A DNA stretch of 64,000 nucleotides from Longimicrobiales bacterium (GCA_965202805.1 OZ241869.1:1792001-1856000), one strand, 5' to 3'; numbered from the stretch's first letter, positions 47,013 through 64,000 are shown. The notes: generated by a model not told the origin, from the sequence alone. Numbers and translations: made by a program.

Positions 47013-47915
47013 TTGCGACATCGTGGGGCCACTTCTGCCACATTACTTCCGGATCGTCGATGCTCCCCAACCCAAGGTAACTCGGTGTCTCCCCCTTCCC
47101 ATGAGTCGCTTCAGGCCACCACGGCCGACCACCGGTACGGTCGCCCTTCAATCCTCAGACGGCTGTTGCGCGCCCTGACCAAGAGCGCCCGCAATCCAGC
47201 TTTGGCCTTCCGCGTGCTCTGGCCCCGCTTGTCCCCGTTTGCCGCGAAATCTCCCGATCCCCAGTTCCGGCGTGCGGTCAGATGGTCCTTCGGTACCCTC
47301 AAGCGGGAACACATGAACGCAGTGTTTCCAGGGATCGAGGCGGTGGATGTCCGCATCGTCCGTTCGTTCGACCGCGAGCCACTGCTGTCGATGTTCCCGA
47401 CCGAGGTTGTCGTGCTGGCCGCGATGGTGCGGAAGCTGAAGCCGCTACGCCTACTGGAAATCGGTACCTTCGAAGGGAATACATCGGTCAACCTGATTGC
47501 CAACGCACCGTCCGACGCTCGCATGGTCACCGTCGATCTTCCGCCCGATTGGGATGGCGAGTATGCGCAAAACGTGCCGAGCATCCACGTGAACGCGGCG
47601 GTCGGGGTTCAGATCGGGAGGCAGTTCCTGGATTCGCCGTACAGGGACCGGGTAACTCAGGTGTTCGAGGATTCCGGGACGTTCGACTGGACGTCACACG
47701 CGCCTTACGACTTCATCCTGATCGATGGCTGCCACACCTATGAGTACGCCCTCTCCGACACCCGAAATGCGCTCGAAGTCCTGCGCCCAGGCGGCGTTAT
47801 CGTGTGGCACGACTATGGGATGCTTGAGGACGTCAGCCGGCTGGTAGACGAGATGTCGCAGCAGATGGTCGTTCGAGCTATTCAGGGCACCCGTATCGCC
47901 GTGGGGTTTCCGTAG
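47013..47915 (+). CDS. Class I SAM-dependent methyltransferase (Methyltransf_24-like)
   Basis: LLEIGTFEG, VTVDL, DFILIDGCH.YE...D, LRPGGVIVWHDY; true start probably downstream. Confidence 0.85.
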   Translation: MRHRGATSATLLPDRRCSPTQGNSVSPPSHESLQATTADHRYGRPSILRRLLRALTKSARNPALAFRVLWPRLSPFAAKSPDPQFRRAVRWSFGTLKREHMNAVFPGIEAVDVRIVRSFDREPLLSMFPTEVVVLAAMVRKLKPLRLLEIGTFEGNTSVNLIANAPSDARMVTVDLPPDWDGEYAQNVPSIHVNAAVGVQIGRQFLDSPYRDRVTQVFEDSGTFDWTSHAPYDFILIDGCHTYEYALSDTRNALEVLRPGGVIVWHDYGMLEDVSRLVDEMSQQMVVRAIQGTRIAVGFP

Positions 47916-47936
47916 GACCAAGCCCTCCCACCAAGG

Positions 47937-48416
47937 TCAGCCGCGGGACTTTGCGGTCTCGTCGGTGTCGGTTGTCCCGGATGATGTATCGTCATCGTGG
48001 GGCCGGACCATCATGACGCGTCCCGGCACGCCGAGGACGATTCCATACGCGGGCACATCGGCCATCACCAGGGTATTGGCTCCCACCGTCGCCATCCGAC
48101 CGATGCGCACACCCGGGAGTATCGTCGCCTTCACCCCGATATAGGCGTCATCTTCGATCACCACCGGCGCCGCCTTCTTGAGGTTGTACGCCTTCTCCAG
48201 CCTGGAGTGAACGGCGGTGACTTCGCCTAGTATCGAGACCGCGTTGCAGATGGTTACGCGGGCGCCGATCTCGATCATGTCGGGCCGAGTAACCTGAAGA
48301 TTGCGATCAATGGTGGTCTGCGGCCCGATTCGCATCCCCGAGAGCCGGTAAAGGGCGGCTCGGCGTCCCTGGGGGAAGGGAAGCAGCGCAGCCAGGTATC
48401 GAATGACTTTATTCAT
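47937..48416 (-). CDS. Hexapeptide-repeat O-acyltransferase
   Basis: VVIEDDAYIG..ATILPGVRIG..ATVGAN..V..DVP....GVPGR. Confidence 0.88.
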   Translation of the reverse strand: MNKVIRYLAALLPFPQGRRAALYRLSGMRIGPQTTIDRNLQVTRPDMIEIGARVTICNAVSILGEVTAVHSRLEKAYNLKKAAPVVIEDDAYIGVKATILPGVRIGRMATVGANTLVMADVPAYGIVLGVPGRVMMVRPHDDDTSSGTTDTDETAKSRG

Positions 48417-48828
48417 CGCTCTCCTGCCCCACCTTGACCGATGCCGAACCGGTCAGGGCCGCTACTCCGTCGTGTTCACGCCGCGCGACGAACTTGACGA
48501 GCATCGATTCGGTCGCAGGAGACACGTGGGCGACGACTGTCTCGAATACCACCGCCTCTCCCACGTATACCGGGGCCTTGAAATCGAACTGGTACGAGAG
48601 GCACAGGGCTCCCGGTCCCGGAAGCTGCGTACCGATGATCCGGCTGATCTCGGCCAGCAGCACACCCGCGTACGCAACGCGCCTGGGGAAACCGAACCGC
48701 TGGGCAGAGCGATCGTCTACATGAATCGGGTTCTGATCCCCGGATAGCTCGGCGAAGCCCCGCATGTTCTCCTCGCCCACGATGATGCGGGAGATGTAGC
48801 GGTCGTTGAGGCGGTAGGTCGCGGCCAT
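48409..48828 (-). CDS. MaoC-family (hot-dog) dehydratase
   Basis: FAELSGDQNPIHVD, IGTQLPGPG, FKAPVYVGE. Confidence 0.9.
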   Translation of the reverse strand: MAATYRLNDRYISRIIVGEENMRGFAELSGDQNPIHVDDRSAQRFGFPRRVAYAGVLLAEISRIIGTQLPGPGALCLSYQFDFKAPVYVGEAVVFETVVAHVSPATESMLVKFVARREHDGVAALTGSASVKVGQESDE

Positions 48829-49053
48829 GTCGTTAGGAGCCGAGGCTGCCGGAAGGGATGTGCTTCGGGGGGGACGGACATCGGAACGTGGCGCGAAAAC
48901 ATACCGGCTTGTTCGAAGGCGGACAACGGAACTCGCCTGACGAGCCACGGGTCGGAGACGGTTGTGTTCCGCGTCGCGGAAGCCCGGTTTCCGAACCCGC
49001 GCCAGAGGGGTTTGAGGGCGCCTTCCCCTCGGCTGCGCGTGACTGCTAGTTTC

Positions 49054-50994
49054 ATGTTCACCGCCCGCCCCTCTTCAGATCTGCGCGACCCCGTGACCGA
49101 CACTTCCTCCAGCCACATCCTGGCCGAGCGTCTCGCACGGGCGGCGGAGACGGAAGACTGGGCCACGTTTGTTTCTGCTGTCCGCGACGCCGGGCCGGGC
49201 CTGATCGCCGATCTGTCGCTCGCGACGATGGTTCAGCGGGTGACGGGTCGCCTCGACATCGAGGCGCTCCCGCAGGGGTTTCGCCCACTGCGGGTTGCCG
49301 TGCTTCGCAACGCGACGCTCGAGCCCGCGTTGCCCGCGGTCACGGTGGCGCTCGTTCAGCGCGGTTTCGTCCCGGAGTTTCGGCTGGGAGACTTCGACGT
49401 CTACGAGCCCTACGCGGAGGGGCTCGGCGAGCGGCGGCGGGAGCACCTGGCGGGGGCCGATGTCGCGTTCGTGTACTGGGATCCGGACCAGCTGGCGGGC
49501 GATGCCCTGTTCGCCCCGCCGGACGACTTCTTCGAGGTACTGCGCGCCCGTATCACGGCGATTCTGGAGGGGCTCGTCGAACGTGTGGACGGTTCCGTCA
49601 TCGTCGCCAACCTCGCACCCGCCATGCACGACGTGTTCGGAGCGCGCGGCGCGCGGGATCCGCACAGTTGGCCACAGGTCGCCCGCCGCCTGAACCTGGC
49701 GCTGGCCGACTTCGCCGCGGCAAGGGACTCGGTCGCCGTGCTCGACCTTGCCCACGCGGTCGCCCGTATTGGCGTGTCGGGCTACCGGGACGCGCGCACC
49801 TACTACCCGTCGAGGGTCGCGTTCAGCGCGGCCTTCGCGCCCCGGTTCGCGACGGCGTTTGCATCCACGGTGGCCGCCGCGTTGTCCCAGCCCCGCAAGT
49901 GCCTCGTGCTCGACTGCGACAACACCCTGTGGGGCGGCGTCCTTGGGGAGGATGGCCCCGAGGGCGTCCACATTGGGACGGAATACCCGGGAAGCCTGTA
50001 CCGCCTCTTTCAGCTTCATCTCAAGGCTCTCCACGGCCAGGGGTTCCTCCTGGCCCTCAACAGCAAGAACGACGAAGCCGAGGTTCTCGCCTTCCTTCGG
50101 TCCTCCCCCGACATGGTGCTCCGCGAGGAGCACATCGCCACCCATCGCATCAACTGGGGCGACAAGGCCGAGAACATCCGCGGCATCGCCGCCGACCTGA
50201 ACATCGGCATCGACTCGCTCATTTTCATCGACGACAGCGACGTTGAGTGCGAGCGGGTGCGTCAGGCTCTGCCCGAGGTGCAGGTTGAGCGGTTTCCGGG
50301 TGTGCCCCTCAAGATCCCCGGCTTCATCGACTCGCTCCGCGGAACCGAGATTCTGCGGGTAACGGAGGACGATCTGCGGCGCTCGGAGTCGCTGCGCGCC
50401 GACATCCACCGCCGCGCGCTGCGCGAGCGGGTGGGCGGCTACCGGGAGTTCCTGGAGAGCCTGGGCATCGAGCTTGCCATCCGGTGTGGTGCGTCGGCTC
50501 ATGTCGAACGGATCAGTCAACTGACGCAGCGGACCAACCAGTTCAACCTCACCACCCGCCGTTATTCGGTGGCCCAGCTACGCGCCATGCTGGAGCGCGA
50601 CCGGGTGTACACCATGGCGATGCGCGACCGGTTTTCCGATTACGGGACCGTCGGGGTCGCCATCGTCAGGGACACGGAACGCCCCGGGGAGGCCGAGATC
50701 GACTCGCTGTTGATGAGTTGCCGTGCCTTTGGTCGCCGCATCGAGGAGACCTTCCTCGGGGTGGTGCTCGACGATCTCGCGGCGGGCGGTGTCCAGCGCG
50801 TGACCGCGGCCTACCGGCCCACCGAGCGAAACGCCATGGTGCGGGACTTCTTCCCGCTTCTCGGGTTCGAGCCCTGTCCCTGTCCGGCGGGCGAGTCCGG
50901 GGACGCCGGGATGTACTATCTTCTGCGGCTGCCACGCGATCCTGCGGCATTCGACGAGCTTCCACACGCGATGACCTTCAGCACGCGATCCTGA
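49054..50994 (+). CDS. FkbH-like HAD-IIIC glyceryl transferase/phosphatase
   Basis: KCLVLDCDNTLWGG, SKND, INW.DK, FIDDS..E, QLTQRTNQFNLTTRRY, DRFSDYG, LMSCRAFGR. Confidence 0.93.
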   Translation: MFTARPSSDLRDPVTDTSSSHILAERLARAAETEDWATFVSAVRDAGPGLIADLSLATMVQRVTGRLDIEALPQGFRPLRVAVLRNATLEPALPAVTVALVQRGFVPEFRLGDFDVYEPYAEGLGERRREHLAGADVAFVYWDPDQLAGDALFAPPDDFFEVLRARITAILEGLVERVDGSVIVANLAPAMHDVFGARGARDPHSWPQVARRLNLALADFAAARDSVAVLDLAHAVARIGVSGYRDARTYYPSRVAFSAAFAPRFATAFASTVAAALSQPRKCLVLDCDNTLWGGVLGEDGPEGVHIGTEYPGSLYRLFQLHLKALHGQGFLLALNSKNDEAEVLAFLRSSPDMVLREEHIATHRINWGDKAENIRGIAADLNIGIDSLIFIDDSDVECERVRQALPEVQVERFPGVPLKIPGFIDSLRGTEILRVTEDDLRRSESLRADIHRRALRERVGGYREFLESLGIELAIRCGASAHVERISQLTQRTNQFNLTTRRYSVAQLRAMLERDRVYTMAMRDRFSDYGTVGVAIVRDTERPGEAEIDSLLMSCRAFGRRIEETFLGVVLDDLAAGGVQRVTAAYRPTERNAMVRDFFPLLGFEPCPCPAGESGDAGMYYLLRLPRDPAAFDELPHAMTFSTRS

Positions 50995-51007
50995 GGAGAG
51001 GAGCCCG

Positions 51008-51250
51008 ATGACGGTACACGATCGATTGGCGCGCATCTTCCAGCTTCAATTCGGCGTACTGGTGCCGCCCGACGGGGACATGGGCGCGGAGACCGATGGC
51101 GCCTGGGATTCGCTCGCGCACATCAATCTGATTCTTGCGGTCGAGCAGGAATTCGCAGTGGTGCTGTCCCCGGAAGAGGCGGGTAGAGCCTCGTCCTTCC
51201 GGGCGATGAGGGCGCTCATCGAGTCCAGAACGCAAGGACGGCCGGCGTGA
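51008..51250 (+). CDS. Acyl carrier protein
   Basis: WDSLAHINLILAVEQEF phosphopantetheine site. Confidence 0.9.
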   Translation: MTVHDRLARIFQLQFGVLVPPDGDMGAETDGAWDSLAHINLILAVEQEFAVVLSPEEAGRASSFRAMRALIESRTQGRPA

Positions 51251-52098
51251 ATACCCTCGCATTCCGCTTCGACGTGGACTCCGTGCGCTGCTGCAGGGTG
51301 GGCATTCCACGTCTGATGGACGCGGCGGACCGGCTGGGCGTACGCTTCACCTTCTTCTTGAACCTGGGCTCAACCTTCAACTGGAGGCATACGCTCAGGC
51401 ACGTGGCGCGCAAACAACTGCGCAGGGTCGCGCCGACTGCGCCCGGCCCGGCTTCGATGCCGACCCTGGCCAAGCTCGGGGCGGTGGGCGTGCTTGAGAC
51501 CATGCTGCTGAATCCCTGGCTGGGAAATCGATTCCGGACCGTCTTCGGACGGCTCTTCGATGCCGGCCACGAACTCGGGCTGCATGGCGGCACCGACCAC
51601 GCGCTCTGGCAGCGCGCCCTGGACGAACTCTCCGACCGACAGCTCGATGCACTGCTGAGGCCCGCGTACGAGAGTTTTCAGAGGGACTACGGCAAGCCGC
51701 ATGGCCTGGCCAGTCCCGGTTTCCGCTACGACGACCGTGTTCTGAGCCTGACCGACAGCTACGGCTTCACCTATGGCTCCGACATGCCCGGGGAAAAGCC
51801 CTTCCGACCCAGCGTAGGGGGCCGTGAGCTGGTCCACTATCAGGTTCCCGTGAATGTGGTCGGCGACGGCACGGTGCCGCTGGTCGAACAAATGCTGGCG
51901 CTGGGGCGAGCCGATGGAGAGATCGTCCGGTCGGCGGCGGATGCCATCCGCAAGCGCGACTTCGCGCTCATGTACGGCCATCCCTTCGTCGAAGGAGTGC
52001 GGGCGGACCTGATCGAGCGCATCGTGGGCGAAGTAAGGGACACGCATGATGTGGTCACGGTTCAGGAGTACCTCGCAAGATGGCGGCGGCGTGCGTGA
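51247..52098 (+). CDS. Polysaccharide deacetylase / ArnD-like deformylase
   Basis: FRFDVD, TFFLNLG, GHELGLHG..H, SPG, YGSD, YGHP. Confidence 0.8.
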   Translation: MNTLAFRFDVDSVRCCRVGIPRLMDAADRLGVRFTFFLNLGSTFNWRHTLRHVARKQLRRVAPTAPGPASMPTLAKLGAVGVLETMLLNPWLGNRFRTVFGRLFDAGHELGLHGGTDHALWQRALDELSDRQLDALLRPAYESFQRDYGKPHGLASPGFRYDDRVLSLTDSYGFTYGSDMPGEKPFRPSVGGRELVHYQVPVNVVGDGTVPLVEQMLALGRADGEIVRSAADAIRKRDFALMYGHPFVEGVRADLIERIVGEVRDTHDVVTVQEYLARWRRRA

Positions 52099-53920: not shown

Positions 53921-54820
53921 TCAGCCCCTCAGGTGCTCGTTGAAGAAGGCGATGGTGCGCTCCTGGGCGAGGCCGGCGGCTTCCTGGTCGTAGCGGGGGG
54001 TGGTGTCGTTGTGGAAGCCGTGGTTGGCGCCCTCGTAGACGTGGACCGCGAACTCCTTCCCGTTCGCCTCGAGCGCCTCCTGGTAGGCCGGGTAGGCGGC
54101 GTTGATGCGCTCGTCCAGGCCCGCGAGCTGGATCATGAGGGGCGCCTGTATCGAGGGCACGTCCTCCAAGGCCGGCGCCGATCCGTAGAAGGGCACGCCC
54201 GCGCCCAGATCCGGTAGTCGGACCGCGAGCTGGTTCACCACTCCGCCGCCGTAGCAGAAGCCGACGGCCCCGACTCGCCCGGTGGTCGCCTCGTGGTCCC
54301 GCAGGAACCGGAACGCGGCCACCCAGTCCTCCATCATCACGTCCCTGTCGAGCTGCCGCTGCATCTCCCGGCCCTCGTCGTCGTTGCCGGGATACCCGCC
54401 CAGGGGAGTGAGCGCGTCCGGCCCCAGCGCCACGAAACCGGCCGCGGCGAACCTGCGCACCACGTCTTCGATGTAGGGGTTGAGGCCGCGATTCTCGTGG
54501 ATGACGAGGACCGCGGGCGCGGGCTCCGTCGCCCCGGCGGGCAGGGCCAGATAGCCGCGCATGGTCCCCGAGCCGTCCGGTGACGGATAGGTGACGTACT
54601 CCTGCCGGATGCGGGCGTCGTCGGTCTCCACCTGCCGCGCCCACGCATAGTTGGGACGAAGCGCCTCGAGCACCGCCACGGCAGCCGCACCGCCGCCCAG
54701 CACCTTCCCCGCACCCTCCAGGAAGTCCCGGCGCCGAATGAACCCGTGGACATAGCCGTCGAAGAGGGCCAGCACCTCCTGGGGGAAATCGCTCGCCTGC
54801 TTTCGTGTGCTCATGATCAA
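53921..54820 (-). CDS. Dienelactone hydrolase family protein (YghX-like)
   Basis: FDGYVHG..RRDFL, VIHENRGLNPYIEDV, GFCYGGG, HGFHNDTTPRYD. Confidence 0.93.
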   Translation of the reverse strand: MIMSTRKQASDFPQEVLALFDGYVHGFIRRRDFLEGAGKVLGGGAAAVAVLEALRPNYAWARQVETDDARIRQEYVTYPSPDGSGTMRGYLALPAGATEPAPAVLVIHENRGLNPYIEDVVRRFAAAGFVALGPDALTPLGGYPGNDDEGREMQRQLDRDVMMEDWVAAFRFLRDHEATTGRVGAVGFCYGGGVVNQLAVRLPDLGAGVPFYGSAPALEDVPSIQAPLMIQLAGLDERINAAYPAYQEALEANGKEFAVHVYEGANHGFHNDTTPRYDQEAAGLAQERTIAFFNEHLRG

Positions 54821-55129
54821 TCTCCGAAGGTCGTAGTGGTGTCGTGGCCGAGGTCGTCGGCCAACAGGAACCTGCCTGACTGCGAGTCAGGATAGTGCTC
54901 GGGGCACAGCGAGAACAAGAAGGCGGTTCGGTGGCTCACAGAGCGTTCACGCGGGTGCGGACGTGTCCCCCATGACAGTCGCCGGTGCGCGATGGCACGC
55001 CTCCTGCTTAGCGTGCCGAGGCGTCAGACGTCCAGGTTGCCGCCGACAGTAGCGCGGGATGCCCCTGCGCGACTCGGCCGCGCGCGCGCCGGACAGGGCC
55101 TGCGGGTCGAACGCCACGACGATTTTTCG

Positions 55130-55153
55130 GGACATGATAACGGACAGGATAGC
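55130..55153 (+). promoter_or_regulatory. Tandem 12-bp arm-type integrase site candidate
   Basis: GGACATGATAAC/GGACAGGATAGC just before the integrase ATG; ATAAC-N7-ATAGC recurs at 56330-56346. Confidence 0.5.
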
Positions 55154-55155
55154 AT

Positions 55156-56307
55156 ATGGAACGACCGAGGAAACTAACCGCGGGTTTCGTCAAGGCAGTC
55201 CGGCGGCCCGGCCGATACGGGGACGGACGCGGAGGCTTCGGGCTGTCGCTGCTGGTCAAGCCCACGTCGACCGGACGGATCAGCAAGACGTGGGCGCAGC
55301 GCCTCTACATCAACGGCAGGCCCGTGAACCTGGGGCTGGGGGCGTATCCGCTGGTGACGTTGAAGGAGGCGAGAGTCAAGGCGCTCGAGAACCGGCGCAC
55401 GCTGGAGCGGGGGATGGACCCCAGGAGCGACGGCACACCGACGTTCGCGCGAGCCGCCGAGAAGGTGATCGCGATCCACAGGGCGAACTGGAAGCCGGGC
55501 AGCGACACCGAGCAGCAGTGGAGGCAGAGCCTGCGCGAGTACGTCTACCCGAAGATCGGGGACAAGACGGTGGACGAGATCACGACGACGGACGTGATGG
55601 CCATCCTGCTGCCGATCTGGAACGAGAAGCGGGTGACGGCGACGCGGGTGCGCAACAGGATTTCGGCGGTGATGAGGTGGGCCGTCGCGCAGGAGTACAG
55701 GGAGGGGAATCCGGCCGGCGACACCATCGCGGCCGCACTGCCCAGGAACGAGGTTCGAACGGTCCACCATCGCGCGCTGCCTCACACCCAGGTTGCGCGG
55801 GCGCTGGCGAGAGTGCGTGCGAGCACGTCGCAGCCCATGACCAAGCTGGCATTCGAGTTTCTCGTTCTGACCGCGTCCAGATCGGGCGAGGCCCGGAGTG
55901 CGAGATGGGCCGACATCGACGCCGGGGCCGCCACATGGACCGTGCCCGCCAAACACATGAAGACGGGACGCGAGCACCGGGTGCCGCTGTCCTCACGCGC
56001 GCTCGAAGTGCTCGCCCAGGCGCGCCATCGATGCAGGGGATCCGAGCTGGCGTTCCCCTCCCCGGCCGGCCGCAAGCTGACCGGCAACACGTTCTCCCTG
56101 CTCTGCCGGCGCCTTGAAATCGCCGCCGTTCCGCACGGCTTCCGTTCCTCGTTCCGCGACTGGTGCGCCGAGCGCGGCGTACCCCGCGAGGTCGCCGAAT
56201 CCGCGCTCGCGCACGCGGTCAAGGGCGTCGAGGGCGCTTACCTGCGATCCGATCTCTTCGAGCAACGGCGGGAGATCATGGAAGCATGGGCCGACTACGT
56301 GCGGTAA
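55156..56307 (+). CDS. P4-like tyrosine recombinase/integrase with arm-binding domain
   Basis: GRYGDG..GLSLLVK, LGLGAYPLVTLKEAR; catalytic R(SGE), MK, HGFR, LAH, AY.R all intact. Confidence 0.95.
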   Translation: MERPRKLTAGFVKAVRRPGRYGDGRGGFGLSLLVKPTSTGRISKTWAQRLYINGRPVNLGLGAYPLVTLKEARVKALENRRTLERGMDPRSDGTPTFARAAEKVIAIHRANWKPGSDTEQQWRQSLREYVYPKIGDKTVDEITTTDVMAILLPIWNEKRVTATRVRNRISAVMRWAVAQEYREGNPAGDTIAAALPRNEVRTVHHRALPHTQVARALARVRASTSQPMTKLAFEFLVLTASRSGEARSARWADIDAGAATWTVPAKHMKTGREHRVPLSSRALEVLAQARHRCRGSELAFPSPAGRKLTGNTFSLLCRRLEIAAVPHGFRSSFRDWCAERGVPREVAESALAHAVKGVEGAYLRSDLFEQRREIMEAWADYVR

Positions 56308-56392
56308 CCGCGGGAGATGCATCGCGCGCATAACCCTGATAATAGCGGCATGGTCGTGTAGTCGTATCACATTGTCATGATGTGAGTTAAGG

Positions 56393-59300
56393 ATGGTCGG
56401 TGCCGGTGAGTACATCCGGTCTTCGGCCGTGGTCGGCAACGTAGTTGCCGCGGACGCGATGATGAGCGGCGGCGACGGTCAGCCCGAGACGCTGGCGGGC
56501 GTGACGGTCACGCTCGGCGGCGAGCACGCCATGGGCGAGACCATGGAGACCGACATGAGCGGCGGCTTCGCCTTCACCGGGCTCCGCGCCGGCACCTACA
56601 CGGTCACCATCTCGGACTTCCCGGAGGACGTCTCCTTCGAGGAAGTGAGCCTCGAGATCTCGGTCGAGGTGGGCGAGGTCGGCCAGGCCGACTTCACGGG
56701 CCACTTCATCCGCACGTCCGCGGTCGAGGGCCAGGTGATCATCGAGGGCGAGGGCCTTGCCGGGGTGACGGTCACCCTGAACGGCGGGCCGGCCGACGAG
56801 AGCTACACGATGATGACCGACGCCGACGGCATGTACCGGTTCGAGGAACTGCGCCCCGGCGACTACACGGTCAGCATCAGCGACTTCGACACCCGCGACT
56901 ACGAGTTCGCGGCCACGTCCCAGGACGTGAGCGTGGACCTGGACGAGACCGGAACGGTGTCGTTCACCGGCGTCCTGCTCCGGACTTCGGGCATCGCCGG
57001 CCGGGTGAGCGTCGAAGGCATGGGCCTCGGCGGCATCGAGGTCACGCTGTCGGGCGGAGAGGAAGCCCAGACGGCGATGACCGACGACGGCGGCCAGTAC
57101 AACTTCGCGGGCCTGGCGGCTGGCGACTACACGGTCTCGATCGCGGTCGAGAGCGACGCCTACGTGTTCGAGTCGATGAGCTCGGACGTGACGGTCGGTG
57201 ACGACGAGTCGAAGATCGTCAACTTCGAGGGCATGCACGCGAGGACCGCGAGCGTGTCCGGCATGGTGTTCCTCGACGAGGCGACCAAGAACGACATGCA
57301 CGACGAGGGCGAGCATCCTCTGGCGCACGCCGGCATTCCGGTGGCGCTGGTGGGCCCGGGCGTCAACGAGCAGCGGCTGGGCGCGACCGACGCGACCGGC
57401 GCCTTCTCGTTCTCGGGTCTCCGCTCCGGCCCGTACCAGCTGGTCGTCCTCATCGACGCCACGGTGGCGGCTGCACTCGCGGCCAACGACGTGGCGTACG
57501 GCGGACCGGCGACCGGCTACGAGATCGCTCTCGGTGTCGGCGAGGCCGCATCGCAGGGGATTCCGTTCGACATCACGCACACGACCGTGAACTTCACGGT
57601 GATGCTGAGGCATGGCGACGACATGGGTGCGGCGGTTCCCGGCGCCAGCGTCACGCTCTACTCCGACGCGGACGGCGAGAACAAGGTCGGCAGCGGCGAC
57701 ACCGGCGACGACGGCTCCGTGGCGATCAAGGTCGCGCGTGGCTACACCAGCGGGAACATGGTGCACGCGGGCGTGTCCGCAGACGGTTACACCGGCGAAG
57801 GCATGACGGCCGTGTCGTGGGATCCGCAGATGTTCGCAACCGCGGCCTCCAACAGCCACGACCTCGTCAACCTGAGCGTCGACGCGACGGTCAGCGGCGC
57901 GACGGTCGAGACCGAGTACGGTGGCGGCAAGGCACTCGGCGGCTGGGCGATGAGCGTCATGTCCGGCGACGATGCGGTTGATGGCGCACCCGAGATGCTG
58001 GACGACGAGGGCAACGCGGCGTTCATGACCACCGTCGGAGCCGACGACCTGCCCGCGACCTACACCTTCGCGGTCGCCGACGACCAGGACGACAAGCTGG
58101 ACGGCGGCGAGAAGTACGCCGGGACCTCGGTCGAGTACACGCACACCGGTCTCGCGCTGGCGGGCACGATGGACGCCGGCACGATGGAGGTGGCGTACAC
58201 GACCCAGACCCTAAAGGTCTACGTGCACCACGAGCGCGACCAGGTGATGGGCTACACCGGCAACATCCTGGGCGGTGACGCGAGGGACGATGGCCAAGTC
58301 TCCGTCAGCATCCGCTACATCGATGGCAACGGCCGCTCCCGTGCGTTCGCGACTGCGGACAAGATCTCGAGCCCGGACAACAACGGTAGCAAGGGTGTCT
58401 GGACCTTCAGCAACGTTCCGGCCGACAGGAAAGTCATCGTGCAGGCGGAAGCGGCTACGGGCGTGGAGAACATCAAGCTCCTCGATCCCGACGAGCTCGC
58501 GGCGTACACGATGATGGACGTCAACGGCATCACGGGCGGCGCCTTCGGCGAGATGGGCGGCTTCAACCACACGGTCGAGCTCTGCCCGCTGCAGGCCACC
58601 ACGCCCCAGGACCACGACGAGTGCGCATCGTTCGCCTACGTGACCACGTACACCGTGAGCGGGCAGGTGTGGAAGAACACCGTCAAGATGAAGGGCGACG
58701 ACTTCGACACCGGTGATGACGACGATGGCATCACCACGTTCGTACCCGGGCAGACGGTCAGCCTGTCGCCGGTCGAAGGCGAGAACCTCGCCGGTGAGGA
58801 AGAGTCCCACACCACGACGGAGAAGGCGGTCAAGGGACCGGGTGAGACCTCCAAGGGGAATGAGGTACTCGACGAGACGCACCAGTTCAACTTCGGCGCG
58901 GTGGCCGCGGGCGTTTACGAGCTCAGCGTTCCGTCCGGATGGCGGGCGAAGATGGGCGACATGGATGCCACGGACGATGTCGACGACGCGTTCGACCCGC
59001 TCGAGGGCGAAGTCACGCTCGACGTTACGCCGGCGACGGCTACCCTGTTCGGACGCGTGGACGGCACCGACGGCTTCCCGCTCGACAGCGTGACCGTGAC
59101 CGTGAACGGCCTGTCGGCCATGACCGACGCGTCCGGTCGCTACATCATCGACGGCATCGCTCCGGCGACGCGCAAGATCGGCAGCGCGACGCACAGGAAC
59201 AGCATCTTCGTGGAGGCCTCCCGCAAGGGCTACACCGTCGCAAAACTCGATCCCATCACTTTTGGCACGGGAGCCGAGACCAAAGCGAACAAGACGACGA

Positions 59301-60751
59301 GGCAGGACATCGACCTGGCGGGCGTCCAGTCACGTGCCACGTTCAGCGGCAAGGTCATTGCTTCCAACGGCGGCGCACCGATCGCCGGCGTGGAAATCCT
59401 GGTGGACGATGAGGCACCGCTCAACGCGGCGACGAGCGGCGCGAACAAGGGCAAGCTCGTGACGGGCGCCGACGGCACCTTCACGGCGGAGGCCAAGGCC
59501 AAGACACTGGGCGATATCGCCAACGTGTCGGCGCAGAAGGACGGTTGGACCTTCGTACCCGCCGCGTACCCGGCCGCGGCCCACCCCGGAGCGGAGACGG
59601 CGAGCATCACCTTCTCCGGCTTCGTGAACGCCACGATTATGGGCAGAGTGGCCGCTCCGGGCGGCGGACCCATAAGCGGTGTCATCGTCACGGCGACGCC
59701 GGCAGCCGGCGGCGATGTCGCGGATGCCGACACCACGGGCGTGACGGGAAGCTTCTCGCTCAGCGTGTCGGGGGTCGGCGGCAGCTACAATCTGGCAGCC
59801 ACGCTGGCGAACCACACCTTCGAGCTCCCATCTCAGTACCGACAGGTGGTCAACGTCGCTCCGGGCCAGACCGTGAACATCGGCACCATCCAGGCGATGA
59901 CGTTCGCAGCCAGCGGCGTCGGCGCGTCGCGGTTGCGTGTGCTAGACGATGAGGACACCGACGACGACGAATCCGATCCCTCGCGGTACGTCTCCGCCGG
60001 CGGCGCTGGCAACGTCAGGGTGGCTTGGAAGGCGGGCACCGTGCCTGACGGACACATCGTCAGCTACCAGGCCCAGACCAAGGTCGGCGATGGTAACTGG
60101 GCGGACTTTGGCACCGCTGTCACGTCGGACGCCTTGGCGGGGGCTTCGCCCACAGACTCGACGGCAAGGCGCGGGGATGCCCCAGCCGCCAGCGATGGCG
60201 GGTTCATGGTTCGCGTCGTGTCCACCAGCGACAACGGCACGGCTGGAGACACGACCGACGATCCCGACGCGATCAACAGTGCTGAGGTTGACGTTGCGGC
60301 GATCGATCCGTCGGCCAGCGGTGTGAAGGCGAGGCGTCAGGCGGCAGCAGACTCAGACGAGGGGGCTGCGACCGGCGACTTCATCCAGGCCAGCTGGACC
60401 GCCGTGACGAGTGATGACTCCGACTTCCGGGTCGTTGCCCAGGTCACGCCCGCCGTTCTGCAAGGAAGCACGGTGTGGGTGGTCTTGGTGGCTCCGACTA
60501 CCGGCACTGGCACGGAAAGAGAGCTTGTCTCGGCTGAGATCGACGACACTTACTCCACGGCCCTGACTGTGGCTGAGCCCTCCGGCACGGGGACTCAGAC
60601 GGTCACCGTCACCGCAGCCGACCTCAGAAAGGCCATCAAGGTCGCTGTCGAGTCGGTGCAGGGTACCGCGGATGCCACGGATGACGGCCCGAAGTGGAAG
60701 CGCTCCGGGGCAGTTGATCTCGATGCGAGGGAGGAGTCCAGCGGCAGCTAA
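56393..60751 (+). CDS. Large acidic surface protein with tandem Cna-B/carboxypeptidase-regulatory-like domains; appears 5'-truncated
   Basis: Repeated GVTVTL..TD..G.Y.F..L..G.YTV.I units; no signal peptide; ORF opens at a repeat junction. Confidence 0.8.
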   Translation: MVGAGEYIRSSAVVGNVVAADAMMSGGDGQPETLAGVTVTLGGEHAMGETMETDMSGGFAFTGLRAGTYTVTISDFPEDVSFEEVSLEISVEVGEVGQADFTGHFIRTSAVEGQVIIEGEGLAGVTVTLNGGPADESYTMMTDADGMYRFEELRPGDYTVSISDFDTRDYEFAATSQDVSVDLDETGTVSFTGVLLRTSGIAGRVSVEGMGLGGIEVTLSGGEEAQTAMTDDGGQYNFAGLAAGDYTVSIAVESDAYVFESMSSDVTVGDDESKIVNFEGMHARTASVSGMVFLDEATKNDMHDEGEHPLAHAGIPVALVGPGVNEQRLGATDATGAFSFSGLRSGPYQLVVLIDATVAAALAANDVAYGGPATGYEIALGVGEAASQGIPFDITHTTVNFTVMLRHGDDMGAAVPGASVTLYSDADGENKVGSGDTGDDGSVAIKVARGYTSGNMVHAGVSADGYTGEGMTAVSWDPQMFATAASNSHDLVNLSVDATVSGATVETEYGGGKALGGWAMSVMSGDDAVDGAPEMLDDEGNAAFMTTVGADDLPATYTFAVADDQDDKLDGGEKYAGTSVEYTHTGLALAGTMDAGTMEVAYTTQTLKVYVHHERDQVMGYTGNILGGDARDDGQVSVSIRYIDGNGRSRAFATADKISSPDNNGSKGVWTFSNVPADRKVIVQAEAATGVENIKLLDPDELAAYTMMDVNGITGGAFGEMGGFNHTVELCPLQATTPQDHDECASFAYVTTYTVSGQVWKNTVKMKGDDFDTGDDDDGITTFVPGQTVSLSPVEGENLAGEEESHTTTEKAVKGPGETSKGNEVLDETHQFNFGAVAAGVYELSVPSGWRAKMGDMDATDDVDDAFDPLEGEVTLDVTPATATLFGRVDGTDGFPLDSVTVTVNGLSAMTDASGRYIIDGIAPATRKIGSATHRNSIFVEASRKGYTVAKLDPITFGTGAETKANKTTRQDIDLAGVQSRATFSGKVIASNGGAPIAGVEILVDDEAPLNAATSGANKGKLVTGADGTFTAEAKAKTLGDIANVSAQKDGWTFVPAAYPAAAHPGAETASITFSGFVNATIMGRVAAPGGGPISGVIVTATPAAGGDVADADTTGVTGSFSLSVSGVGGSYNLAATLANHTFELPSQYRQVVNVAPGQTVNIGTIQAMTFAASGVGASRLRVLDDEDTDDDESDPSRYVSAGGAGNVRVAWKAGTVPDGHIVSYQAQTKVGDGNWADFGTAVTSDALAGASPTDSTARRGDAPAASDGGFMVRVVSTSDNGTAGDTTDDPDAINSAEVDVAAIDPSASGVKARRQAAADSDEGAATGDFIQASWTAVTSDDSDFRVVAQVTPAVLQGSTVWVVLVAPTTGTGTERELVSAEIDDTYSTALTVAEPSGTGTQTVTVTAADLRKAIKVAVESVQGTADATDDGPKWKRSGAVDLDAREESSGS

Positions 60752-60765
60752 CAACCCTTCAACCC

Positions 60766-60850
60766 CATCAGTCTGGCTGGCTCGCCACCAGTCAGGCTGA
60801 TGGTCGCAGGACGGCTCACCCCCCGTTCGGGATCCCCGGGCGGGGGGTGA
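60766..60850 (+). terminator. Two adjacent GC-rich hairpins after the surface-protein gene
   Basis: ccatcagtctggctgg...ccagtcaggctgatgg (60766-60803) and tcaccccccg...cggggggtga (60816-60850); no U tract. Confidence 0.5.
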
Positions 60851-60897
60851 CGCCCGTTATGGAGCTACCATCGAATCCCCGATGCGGAGACGGCACG

Positions 60898-63800
60898 ATG
60901 ATTCCGAAGCAGCCTGGCTGGTCCATGCGTTCCCTCTTGGCCGCCGCGGCGATCTGCGCGTTCGCGGCGCCACCGACCGGGGTGCGCGCCGAGGAGCCGT
61001 CCGCGGACGGTTGGGACGAAGTGGTCCGGTCGATCGCGGAACCTCCGGCGGCGCGCGCGGCTGTCCGCCCCTCGACCCATATATCATGGCGCTGGATCGG
61101 GCCGCCCGCACAGGACTCTGCCAGGCTCGATATCCGCTTCGCGGCAAGCGTGACCGGCTTCACGGACGCCGACTTCGTTATCAGTTGCGCGCCCGTGACT
61201 GCGGCGTGCGCGGAGGTTGCGCCGTTCAGCACCGCCAGCGCCGCGCGCTTTTCCGTCACGCTGAGGATGCCGCAGGACTATGATGGCTTTGTGACCGTCC
61301 ATATCCCCGAGAACATGGCGGAGGACGCTGACGGCGATGGGAACCTCCAGTCGAATCAGCCCGTCATCCCCGTGGACACGAGGGCCCCTCGTTTCACCCT
61401 CGCAACGATCAACGGCGACGAAGTCGTCATCGACTTCGACGAAAACCTCAATGAGAGCGCCGTCCCGGCAGTCGGCGACTTTGCCGTTTCCTTCACCAGG
61501 AGCGGTAATTACCGCACAAGGACCGTATCCGCGGTCGAGGTGTCGGCGAGAAAGGTGTTCCTGAGCCTGGAGGGCCCCGTCGAGCAGGGCGATGTGGTTT
61601 CGGTGTTCTATGACGACAGAGGCGACAACGGGCTCCGGGACCGTGTAGGCAATCGAGTGTTCGGCGGCACTTGGCAGGTGGTAAACGTCACCGGGACGAC
61701 GCGCACCGGGCTTCCCGGCGCGCCGCGCAACCTGACCGCCGAGGCCTACGGCCCCACGGCCATCGATCTGGACTGGCTTGCCCCGACCGCGGACGGCGGC
61801 GCCAGGATCACGGCGTACCGGATTGAGGTGTCGGAGAACGGCGGCGATCCCTGGGCGACTCTGGTGCGCAGCACCCCGGACACCGTAACCGCCTACCGTG
61901 ATGAGGACGTTTCGGCGGGCGACACGCGCCACTACAGGGTGTCGGCGATCAACTTCAACGGCACGGGACCCGTCTCCAACGTGGCTCGCGCCACCACGGA
62001 GGAGGTCGCGCCCAGCGCTCCCCGGCGATTAACGGCGCGGGCCAGGGGGACGTCGGCCATCGAGCTGAGATGGAGCGCCCCCTCCTCCAGCGGCTCGTCG
62101 CCGATCACCGGCTACCGCATCGAGTCGTCGCCCACGGGAACCGGCCGCTGGACCGAGCTCGTGGCCAACACCACGGCCACCACCTACACCGACGACGACC
62201 TCAGGCCCAACACGACGCGCCACTACCGCGTCCTGGCCATCAGCCGGGCGGGCCGGAGCGAGTGGTCGAACACCGACCACGCGACCACCGAAGTGGCCTT
62301 GCCGGGCCCGCCCAGGAGCCTGAGTGTGATGCCGAGCGGCTTGAGAGGAAGCGACCAACTCCTCCTCACCTGGTCGCTCCCGGTCGACGACGGCGGGAGC
62401 GAGATCACCGGCTACCTGATCGAGAGGTCCGCCACCCGTGTCGGCGTCTGGCTACCGCTCGTGACCAACACCGGCAACGCGGACCGCATCTACACCGACA
62501 GCAATCTCAGTCCCGCCACCACCTGGTTCTATCGCGTGTCCGCGATCAACAGCAAAGGGGTGGGACGCGCCTCCAGCGTGGCCAGCGGCACCACCAAGGC
62601 CGCGCGTCCCGGGCCACCGCAACGCGTGCGTGCGCTCGCGACCGGACCGAACAGCATCCGCCTCGCCTGGGACCCGCCGGAGACCGATGGCGGGGAGCGC
62701 GTCACCGGCTACGCCATCCAGAGGATTGGGCCCAACGACAACGCCTGGATCACCCACCGTTCCGACACGGGGACGAGGGCAACCACGTTCACGGACACCG
62801 GACTGGAGCCGGTGACCCGGTACCGGTACCGGGTCGCGGCCATCAACGGCGTGGGCCGGGGGGAGTACTCGCCGGCGCCCCCGTTGCCCCCGGCGGCGGC
62901 CATCACGCACGCCGACTTCGCCGGGGTCCCGACCGGGCTGACGGCGCGGGCGGTGGGCACGGCGCGCATCGACCTTGCGTGGAACGCGCCCCGCTACACG
63001 GGCGGCGTCTCGATCATCGGCTACCGCATCGAGGCCTCCGACGACGGGGGCTCGACCTGGAATATCATCCGCCGCAACACGAGCGCGAGGACGACGACGT
63101 ACTCCGACGTGAACCTCCGGCCCGCGACCACGCGGCACTACCGGGTCGCGGCGATCAACCTGGCGGGGGTGGGGAAGTTCTCCAACACGGCGCGGGCGAC
63201 CACCGACGCGACCCTTCCGGGGGTGCCGCGACGTCTCAGCGCCGACGCGGTCGGCACCTCGCAGATCGGCCTCTCCTGGCAGGCGCCCTCGGACGACGGG
63301 GGCGCACGTGTGACCGGCTACCGCATCGAGGTGTCGGCCGACGGGGGCAGGAGCTGGGAGGACCTGGTGGCCAACACGCGCACTACGGCCACCATCCACA
63401 CCCACACCGGCCTCGCGCCGGCCTCGACGCGGCACTACCGCGTCTCGGCGATCAACCGGATCGGCGTGGGCAATGCGTCGCGGGTCGCGGGCTCGACGAC
63501 GGACGCCACCGTGCCGGACGCGCCCACCGGGCTCATGGCCAACGACGTCACGCCCACGCAGATCGACCTCGCGTGGATCGCGCCTGCCTACAACGGCGGA
63601 GCCCGCATCACCGGCTACCGCATCGAGGTCTCGGAGACGGGCGCCGTCTGGGTCGACCTGGAGACCAACACCCAGTCCACGGTCACCGCCTACTCGCATA
63701 CCGGGCTGCTGCCGGGGAGCGTGCGCCACTACCGCGTCTCGGCGATCAACCGGGCGGGCACCGGCGCGCCGTCGGGGAGCGCTTCGGCCGCAACCGACGA

Positions 63801-64000
63801 CCCCGTACAGCGCGCGGGGCGGATGAACACCCACGTCCTGCCGCATGTGGCGGCCGCGATGACGTCGAGCACGGTCTCGGCGATCGCCCGCCGGGTCGAC
63901 CTGGTGGCCAGCGGGATGGGGATGGAGCGGCGCGTGGAGACGAACGGGCTCTCGTCGATGGCCGCGAGCCTGTCCGCACCGGGCGCAGGAGGCCTCGGCC
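60898..64000 (+). CDS. Secreted adhesin: Ig-like + SwmB-like + 7 fibronectin type III repeats (runs off window, possibly autotransporter)
   Basis: Frame open to window end (absent from ORF track); signal peptide; seven P-x-x-P..L.A...I.L.W..P..DGG..ITGYRIE..YRVSAIN units between ~61710 and ~63800. Confidence 0.88.
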   Translation, partial: MIPKQPGWSMRSLLAAAAICAFAAPPTGVRAEEPSADGWDEVVRSIAEPPAARAAVRPSTHISWRWIGPPAQDSARLDIRFAASVTGFTDADFVISCAPVTAACAEVAPFSTASAARFSVTLRMPQDYDGFVTVHIPENMAEDADGDGNLQSNQPVIPVDTRAPRFTLATINGDEVVIDFDENLNESAVPAVGDFAVSFTRSGNYRTRTVSAVEVSARKVFLSLEGPVEQGDVVSVFYDDRGDNGLRDRVGNRVFGGTWQVVNVTGTTRTGLPGAPRNLTAEAYGPTAIDLDWLAPTADGGARITAYRIEVSENGGDPWATLVRSTPDTVTAYRDEDVSAGDTRHYRVSAINFNGTGPVSNVARATTEEVAPSAPRRLTARARGTSAIELRWSAPSSSGSSPITGYRIESSPTGTGRWTELVANTTATTYTDDDLRPNTTRHYRVLAISRAGRSEWSNTDHATTEVALPGPPRSLSVMPSGLRGSDQLLLTWSLPVDDGGSEITGYLIERSATRVGVWLPLVTNTGNADRIYTDSNLSPATTWFYRVSAINSKGVGRASSVASGTTKAARPGPPQRVRALATGPNSIRLAWDPPETDGGERVTGYAIQRIGPNDNAWITHRSDTGTRATTFTDTGLEPVTRYRYRVAAINGVGRGEYSPAPPLPPAAAITHADFAGVPTGLTARAVGTARIDLAWNAPRYTGGVSIIGYRIEASDDGGSTWNIIRRNTSARTTTYSDVNLRPATTRHYRVAAINLAGVGKFSNTARATTDATLPGVPRRLSADAVGTSQIGLSWQAPSDDGGARVTGYRIEVSADGGRSWEDLVANTRTTATIHTHTGLAPASTRHYRVSAINRIGVGNASRVAGSTTDATVPDAPTGLMANDVTPTQIDLAWIAPAYNGGARITGYRIEVSETGAVWVDLETNTQSTVTAYSHTGLLPGSVRHYRVSAINRAGTGAPSGSASAATDDPVQRAGRMNTHVLPHVAAAMTSSTVSAIARRVDLVASGMGMERRVETNGLSSMAASLSAPGAGGLG

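Follow-up and report, generated by a model that had tools for sequence, protein, structure and literature searches.

A candidate site-specific exchange of large surface-lipoprotein bodies by an arm-binding tyrosine integrase in sponge-associated Gemmatimonadota

Why does an intact tyrosine integrase stand directly in front of a long open reading frame that looks like the rear part of a surface protein? The question is raised by a locus in a stretch of 64,000 nucleotides (the window) of a Longimicrobiales bacterium, whose genome (G000) is a single contig of 4.02 Mb; a metagenome search found the stretch in sponge metagenomes. A sequence-only reading of the window had proposed that a cargo-less P4-type integrase recombines near position 56402, so that a silent C-terminal cassette could be fused to an N-terminus expressed from another place, or that a minimal element had simply inserted in the gene. 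The best reading of the data assembled here, and a probable one, is that the integrase drives a site-specific swapping of the bodies of a large surface lipoprotein. The locus contains the following features, all on the plus strand.

55131..55153 (+): left boundary of the integrase unit conserved in orthologs; carries the upstream pair ATAAC-N7-ATAGC over the translation start (putative arm-type sites)
55156..56307 (+): tyrosine integrase of 383 aa, IntSXT/P4-like, with an arm-binding domain (Pfam domains)
56308..56401 (+): AT-rich att arm with ATAAC-N7-ATAGC (56330-56346), TCACAT-N7-ATGTGA (56367-56385) and further conserved blocks
56402..56419 (+): core site; left arm CCGGT 56403-56407, overlap GAGTACA 56408-56414, right arm TCCGG 56415-56419
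56402..60751 (+): silent cassette coding for the headless body of a large surface lipoprotein (homology to paralogs, Pfam)
60847..64000, continuing past the window to genome position 1857199 (+): FN3-repeat protein gene, 1450 aa (seven Pfam fn3 domains)

The order is thus integrase, arm, silent body and FN3 gene. Facing it are a second FN3 gene, a body and a head, the last two belonging to a complete paralog called P2.

Pfam recognizes Arm-DNA-bind_3 (PF13356, E 4.7e-12), Phage_int_M (PF22022) and Phage_integrase (PF00589) in the integrase, so that the arm-binding, core-binding and catalytic domains of the IntSXT/P4 type are all present; PF13356 is, we assume, the family otherwise called DUF4102. 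The catalytic set is complete (R242, K269, H327, R330, H353 and Y362). It is equally intact in all 17 integrases of the group designated clade A, to which the window's enzyme belongs, and in all 23 aligned rows of clades A and B. The clade-A enzymes form one clade in the tree (support 100/100). Compared with 16 orthologs, the window's integrase has a dN/dS of 0.17-0.45, indicating purifying selection, at a dS of 0.18-0.64. The proteins from three species (G005, G018 and G011) are identical or almost so. The upstream neighbor of the integrase differs between species, and hence the integrase unit has also moved between places. At its left edge, blastn matches of orthologous loci stop at genome positions 1847130-1847132, which are window positions 55130-55132. 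Related P4-type integrases number up to 22 per genome in this family (G010, G017, G063 and others).

No tRNA was found in the 64-kb window, and an AlpA-type search of the whole G000 genome gave two matches, at 2020835 and 2027152, about 170 kb away, and none adjoining the integrase. The enzyme is intact and without a neighboring tRNA or AlpA-type excisionase, as had been read from the sequence, but the term 'cargo-less' does not hold, because the cassette and the downstream FN3-repeat gene go with it. Upstream of many orthologs there is a GGTGCAAATCCC-like motif reminiscent of a tRNA T-arm; it is absent in G000, where there is no tRNA at this place. In five loci (L056, L060, L071, L075 and L096) the integrase is immediately preceded by a 430-bp repeat (G000:C1:2046125-2046557) that encodes a small protein of ~115 aa; the repeat is also found downstream of truncated integrases. 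Through homologous recombination it may have carried the unit from one locus to another.

ATAAC-N7-ATAGC flanks the integrase at 55137-55153 and 56330-56346, exactly where it had been noticed before, and has three occurrences in the 4.02-Mb genome. The pair is kept in orthologs as ATAAC-N7-ATA(A/C)C, upstream of the gene in the 15 loci aligned, and sites of this type are the putative targets of the integrase's arm domain. The AT-rich arm is present in all 17 clade-A loci, with a mean GC content of 39% against about 68% around it. The TCACAT-N7-ATGTGA spacer, also pointed out in the sequence-only reading, is indeed present and unique in G000, but orthologs keep only parts of it. The perfect palindrome is peculiar to G000 and was rejected as the key site.

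The core lies within the codons for Ala-Gly-Glu-Tyr-Ile-Arg, where repeats 1 and 2 of the surface protein meet. The pattern CCGGN-GAGTACA-TCCG occurs twice in the genome, in the window cassette and, inverted, in P2, 18.84 kb apart. The exact cut positions within the core are predictions. In three of the 17 loci (L015, L016 and L017; that is, the first copy of G011, G013 and the first copy of G018) the 7-bp overlap is longer by one base. An exchange there would be blocked or frameshifted, and the change, shared by a subclade, is possibly a locked switch.

The cassette consists of conserved Cna-B/carboxypeptidase-regulatory repeats followed by a variable chain of β-sandwich domains. The predicted structure of residues 395-860 (pLDDT 76.9) is a β-sandwich chain with weak matches to pilins, SdrD and Cna-B. 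An atlas search with the protein returned generic Cna-B/carboxypeptidase-regulatory clusters only. From this domain content, it is a fair guess that the protein is an adhesin. The window ORF encodes 1452 aa and has no signal peptide, and its DNA homology to full paralogs begins precisely at 56402, where repeat 1 gives way to repeat 2, in agreement with the view that the gene is cut at a repeat boundary. The ATG at 56393, at which the protein had been taken to start, is incidental, because an in-frame ATG precedes the headless body in one of 17 loci.

G000 also contains P2, a complete paralog of 1545 aa on the minus strand (1867596-1862959), a second complete paralog, P3, on the plus strand (~3414492-3419153), and P4, which is short. 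All of them carry a lipoprotein-like signal (judged by eye) and a proline linker, and have one repeat more than the window copy. The N-terminal half missing from the window thus exists elsewhere, as had been anticipated: P2 is inverted relative to the cassette, 18.8 kb away, and identical to it over the first 41 nt from 56402. P3 has five silent differences from the window copy in the first 30 nt, one of them inside the overlap. The P2 head joined to the window body is in frame and free of stops over 1564 aa. Two marks of a gene-altering programmed inversion, inverted sites within coding sequence and an in-frame alternative C-terminus, are found here.

After the core the paralogs share about 0.9-1.8 kb at 80-100% identity. 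The window body is a mosaic, P2-like for 41 bases, mostly P3-like next and then P2-like again, from which it follows that homologous recombination also acts and adds mosaicism to the bodies. Public contigs near this strain, from two runs, cover the integrase end, arm and core with no differences and fork at 56402 into the shared segment, which has two- to fourfold depth and cannot be phased by these contigs. In two public runs the window tail is unchanged and P2-type letters stand just after the core. The internal joints of the public contigs come from other integrases or paralogs.

A paralog of the FN3-repeat gene sits after each of the three long surface-protein copies in G000. None of the barrel families of Pfam matched the FN3-repeat protein, the C-terminal motif of which suggests that it may be autotransporter-like. 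After a switch, the FN3 gene would come under the promoter of the head.

The facing pair, together with a regulator-like gene, a transposase-like gene and another 1500-aa gene, makes up an insertion of about 29.6 kb (window 54820-55130; G000:C1:1846820-1876400) that adjoins a dienelactone hydrolase gene. The same place is empty in G016, G012 and G010, where the hydrolase gene runs into sequence matching G000 at about 1876.4-1878.4 kb, and holds a full gene alone in G001. Several other observations concern the surroundings. A tRNA-Val-like gene (by eye) is located at G000:C1:3960250-3960330, and its 3' end borders surface-protein islands in G001, G005, G011, G015 and G018. A gene cluster at window 47013-52098 appears by eye to encode a methyltransferase, an acetyltransferase, a MaoC-like dehydratase, an FkbH-like protein, an acyl carrier and a polysaccharide deacetylase; judging by this content, it is likely to serve surface-polysaccharide modification. 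At G000:C1:3048312-3053642 the gene for a large Ig-repeat/LRR surface protein is immediately preceded, in the same frame, by a fragment of a related integrase; LRR genes are also found within several invertible segments. A generic repeat finder gave chance-like pairs only, and neither a scan for sigma-70 promoters and terminators nor an Rfam search gave a match.

The arrangement is not confined to one genome. In 19 genomes of the genus, an integrase at least 80% identical was found in 13, at 16 loci; a metagenome contig raises the number to 17, and a second contig repeats the clade-A locus of the first. All 17 integrases are followed by the arm and by a headless body cut at the dyad, at the junction of repeats 1 and 2 in 13 loci and of repeats 2 and 3 in the other four. 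Two observations had been named in advance as speaking against a recombination site at 56402, namely integrase copies at unrelated sites and homologs that natively begin at MVGAGEY. Neither was made: the orthologs sit at the same site in 17 of 17 cases, and the homologs start further upstream, with heads. The search of relatives for an uninterrupted gene, recommended in the sequence-only reading, was productive as well. In five relatives of one or two contigs that lack clade A, a head precedes every one of the 36 body matches that begin at the core (one of these heads matched over its last 44 residues only). The downstream DNA of 11 ordinary integrase relatives of 48-65% identity was read (L019-L023, two further copies in G000, two in G277, and one each in G112 and G176), and none of them has an arm and headless body there. 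The integrase groups near 60% identity (G277, G112 and G176) were considered as part of the system and dismissed, being unlinked to the surface-protein gene.

The headless bodies are well preserved. All ten fully visible cassettes are open over 1257-1778 codons, at 49-68% identity to the window body. A neutral drift of 5% would, by computation, yield about five stops per body; given the dS values of the integrase, the bodies are under selection or else replaced regularly. No orphan head followed by the element arm was seen among 27 fetched N-terminal loci, all of which run into a body (three of 30 end before the junction), nor was an orphan head found in G000, G001 or G011, where every head is paired. 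The head faces the integrase in G000, G011 and G015, as judged from the flanks. The overlap on the integrase side is also that of a full gene in G000, G001, G015, G011 (second copy), G004 and G008. In G004 and G008 the shared overlap is the rare CATTATA at the next repeat junction, carried by one of the five G008 genes. A matching overlap was not found among the assembled full genes of G003, G005, G012, G013, G016 and G018, all of which are fragmented; G017 offered no overlap for comparison.

N-terminal integrase pieces of about 90-110 aa directly follow the FN3 stop in five of the seven clade-A loci with a partial integrase (L142-L146). Two loci with a body/FN3 gene and a truncated clade-A integrase, L146 (G064) and L144 (G065), are in bins labelled Ca. 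Palauibacter and Chloroflexi, and may represent horizontal transfer or misbinning. Complete surface-protein genes are greatly expanded in G007 (20 copies) and G009 (8-9 copies), both of which lack the integrase; the copies read there have GTGCG instead of the ATCCG right arm. Their gene content suggests that many fixed genes may be an alternative to switching in these two genomes.

The junction itself can be seen in two states in G001, a near-complete relative assembled in three contigs. The final 16,012 bases of contig C3 begin at the core and are an inverse repeat of a stretch 632 kb away, one copy standing after the integrase arm and the other after a head. The copies differ by two substitutions and 19 gap positions, the first substitution being the last base of the left arm. 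On contig C2, the first 13,363 bases, comprising flank and head, match an internal inverse copy at 100% identity through ATCCG; beyond it there are three differences in ten bases, leading into two facing bodies of 53% identity. Together the forks bracket the exchange to the equivalent of 56408-56418, and these alternative junctions inside the core lend support to the proposal that recombination near 56402 joins a silent cassette to an expressed N-terminus. An assembler writes such duplications when reads support two joins, whether these come from one switching clone or from two strains. In G011, an assembly of the same kind, contig ends are repeated for other reasons.

A second group of integrases, clade B, occurs in genus g37. 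These enzymes are 59-60% identical to the window's and form a clade of their own (100/100), but the tree leaves a sister relation of A and B without resolution. Nine of the 13 copies seen have a similar arm followed by a headless body of the same gene family, one of the nine by protein match only. The bodies are cut near residue 44, where full genes read TGACG-GGGTCTC-CGTCA. Of the remaining copies, two are first in integrase tandems, one is arm-less and one (G256) has its arm linked, in reverse orientation, to a secondary TGACG site in the gene, a join that recognition of the dyad would predict. In G061, G313 and G074 a head at one fixed locus, adjoining a gene read by eye as fructose-1,6-bisphosphatase, faces integrase-linked bodies. 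Frame breaks occur in some clade-B copies, both silent and full (G061, G313). In G062:C208 the layout is direct (head-body-integrase-arm-headless body), and two units stand in tandem in G061. A sample of 144 genomes from two other families yielded neither clade.

The reaction proposed here would be as follows. The integrase would recombine its own one-armed site, consisting of arm, core and silent body, with the arm-less core of a complete paralog, in which promoter, lipoprotein signal and first repeat precede the body. The products would keep the forms of the substrates (arm-core-body and head-core-body), and for this reason the reaction could repeat and may need no excisionase. In G000, where P2 faces the cassette, the exchange would invert 18.84 kb and put the window's 1450-residue body and the FN3 gene behind the P2 promoter and head. 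Facing sites would thus switch about nine tenths of the surface protein and the FN3 gene, whereas direct sites would excise or insert a circle composed of core, body, FN3 gene, integrase and arm. This circle is likely to be the ancestral mobile form and the route by which bodies travel between loci and species; the direct-repeat layouts indicate an origin as an integrative cassette. The earlier alternative of a minimal element inserted in the gene fails in its simple form, since there is no orphan head before an element end, but survives in part as an element carrying a replacement 3' gene body, which is probably how the system arose. Direct layouts should be unstable, and what is left of them is mostly truncated relics, while intact enzymes in near-complete genomes seem to stand in facing layouts. 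The integrase is the probable catalyst; it may act independently of an excisionase, circles may form and switching may take place within a clone of this strain. The purpose could be escape from phage or host recognition, or changed attachment.

A more far-reaching version holds that an island integrase has become a self-resetting exchanger, in which a one-armed att site reacts without excisionase with the naked core of any paralog, chromosome-wide (632 kb in G001), circles pass between symbiont species, and the gene family acquired the device twice, each time at a different dyad. As a whole this is tentative, and we would sooner doubt than accept it. Lambda-type integrases recombine a one-armed site with attB poorly, which counts against the body-swapping reaction in general.

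A selfish integrative cassette would use the same chemistry, the sole difference being whether the exchange recurs. Its circle would insert into a full gene and supply a new 3' body, leaving the old body headless behind the integrase; there would be no recurrent switch, and the facing layouts would be later rearrangements, now mostly static. The direct layout in G062:C208, the tandem units in G061, the integrase pieces right after the FN3 stop, the near-identical integrases of G005, G018 and G011 and the varying upstream neighbors are all as expected for such an element. It accounts poorly for a facing layout found repeatedly, at several loci, and fixed in clade B, for displaced bodies that remain open in ten of ten cases, and for the single head on two facing bodies in G001, which is an inversion product. 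We consider it unlikely that the cassette is purely selfish.

It is more improbable still that the integrase made a headless copy once and that the switching is done by RecA-dependent recombination or gene conversion in the shared 5' repeats, as happens among the S-layer genes of Campylobacter fetus. The long similarity after the core, the mosaic paralogs and two public runs in which P2-type letters precede an unchanged window tail are what such a process would leave behind. The bodies on one head in G001, however, differ at three positions within 10 nt of the core, so the break there is not downstream in the shared repeats; moreover, enzyme and arm are kept in 17 of 17 loci, and overlap sequences co-vary with their partners. 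The idea that an assembler misjoined an integrase into the middle of a multi-copy gene can hardly be credited. The gene family is repetitive and several contigs do end within about 250 nt of the core; short-read contig ends of this kind are predicted by multi-copy 5' repeats and were not counted as evidence. But the same junction, with a diverged yet conserved arm, is found at 17 loci in separately assembled genomes, and contigs of two public runs span the integrase end, arm and core without a difference.

If integrase-driven body swapping is correct, it provides a concrete and testable mechanism of surface variation in uncultured sponge-associated Gemmatimonadota, and addresses the open question of how sponge symbionts persist among host cells and phages. 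The surface would be changed by reuse of mobile-element machinery, with nine tenths of a protein swapped onto an expressed head. The transition from mobile-element integrase to phase-variation switch would have been caught at a stage where the mobile, direct layout can still be seen next to the domesticated, inverted one. A reaction of an armed with a naked site that regenerates its substrates on a short in-frame target would be unusual integrase chemistry. It would also account for the assembly breaks at these loci.

Some of its components are known from other systems. Elements such as e14 or phage 21 in icd and SXT in prfC restore their target gene with a carried fragment. The present system likewise carries a part of its target gene, with an intact gene at one junction and a displaced fragment at the other, but the carried part is a variable body of 1250-1800 residues and the displaced part is open and reusable. 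The segments of a shufflon are short tips in a compact array. More than 90% of the protein would be exchanged here, and the partner sites are unlike, one armed and one naked. What would be shared with the R64 shufflon (Rci, PilV), with hsdS and with the Bacteroides SusC shufflons is the in-frame exchange of C-termini with the recombinase adjoining (PMC9881135 and PMC8138268). A strict Rci/sfx shufflon was rejected, as the arm domain is present, only two matching cores exist in the genome and PilV is not the target. Rci, a member of the IntP2 subgroup, lacks an arm domain; enzymes that have the domain are described as phage or ICE integrases, and arm-binding domains are tied to mobility (PMC8138268). 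A literature search limited to an incomplete library and, for most hits, to their listed entries found no description of this system, and the main text of PMC9881135 contains neither 'Gemmatimon' nor 'arm'.

The integrase resembles the IntSXT/P4-type island integrases in its domain set with a DUF4102-type arm domain (PMC8138268) and in its core with a 7-bp overlap; GTGATAAC-like repeat pairs are also found beside ordinary island integrases of the genus. It differs from them in that the target is a repeat junction in a surface-protein ORF and not a tRNA, guaA or prfC flank, and in that the AT-rich arm is downstream of the gene; neither a second armed end nor an adjacent excisionase was found. 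A standard P4-type island was therefore discarded as an explanation, since neither a tRNA in the window, nor a second armed end at the junctions in view, nor an adjacent AlpA-type excisionase was found.

The closest parallel in design is the vsa/HvsR system of Mycoplasma pulmonis, where a promoter and the 5' part of a lipoprotein gene are put before a silent 3' end by site-specific inversion (PMC2268961). As in that system, and in vpma/Xer1 and vsp/Mbr, a tyrosine recombinase would join a 5' gene part to a silent 3' end. Unlike vsa/HvsR, the integrase described here has kept an arm-binding domain, and an AT-rich arm is found on one site only. Each silent body has its own integrase, and the bodies are 4-6 kb long and are followed by an FN3 gene. 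Furthermore, several complete paralogs coexist, the partners are 19 kb to 632 kb apart, and direct, integrative layouts occur beside the inverted ones.
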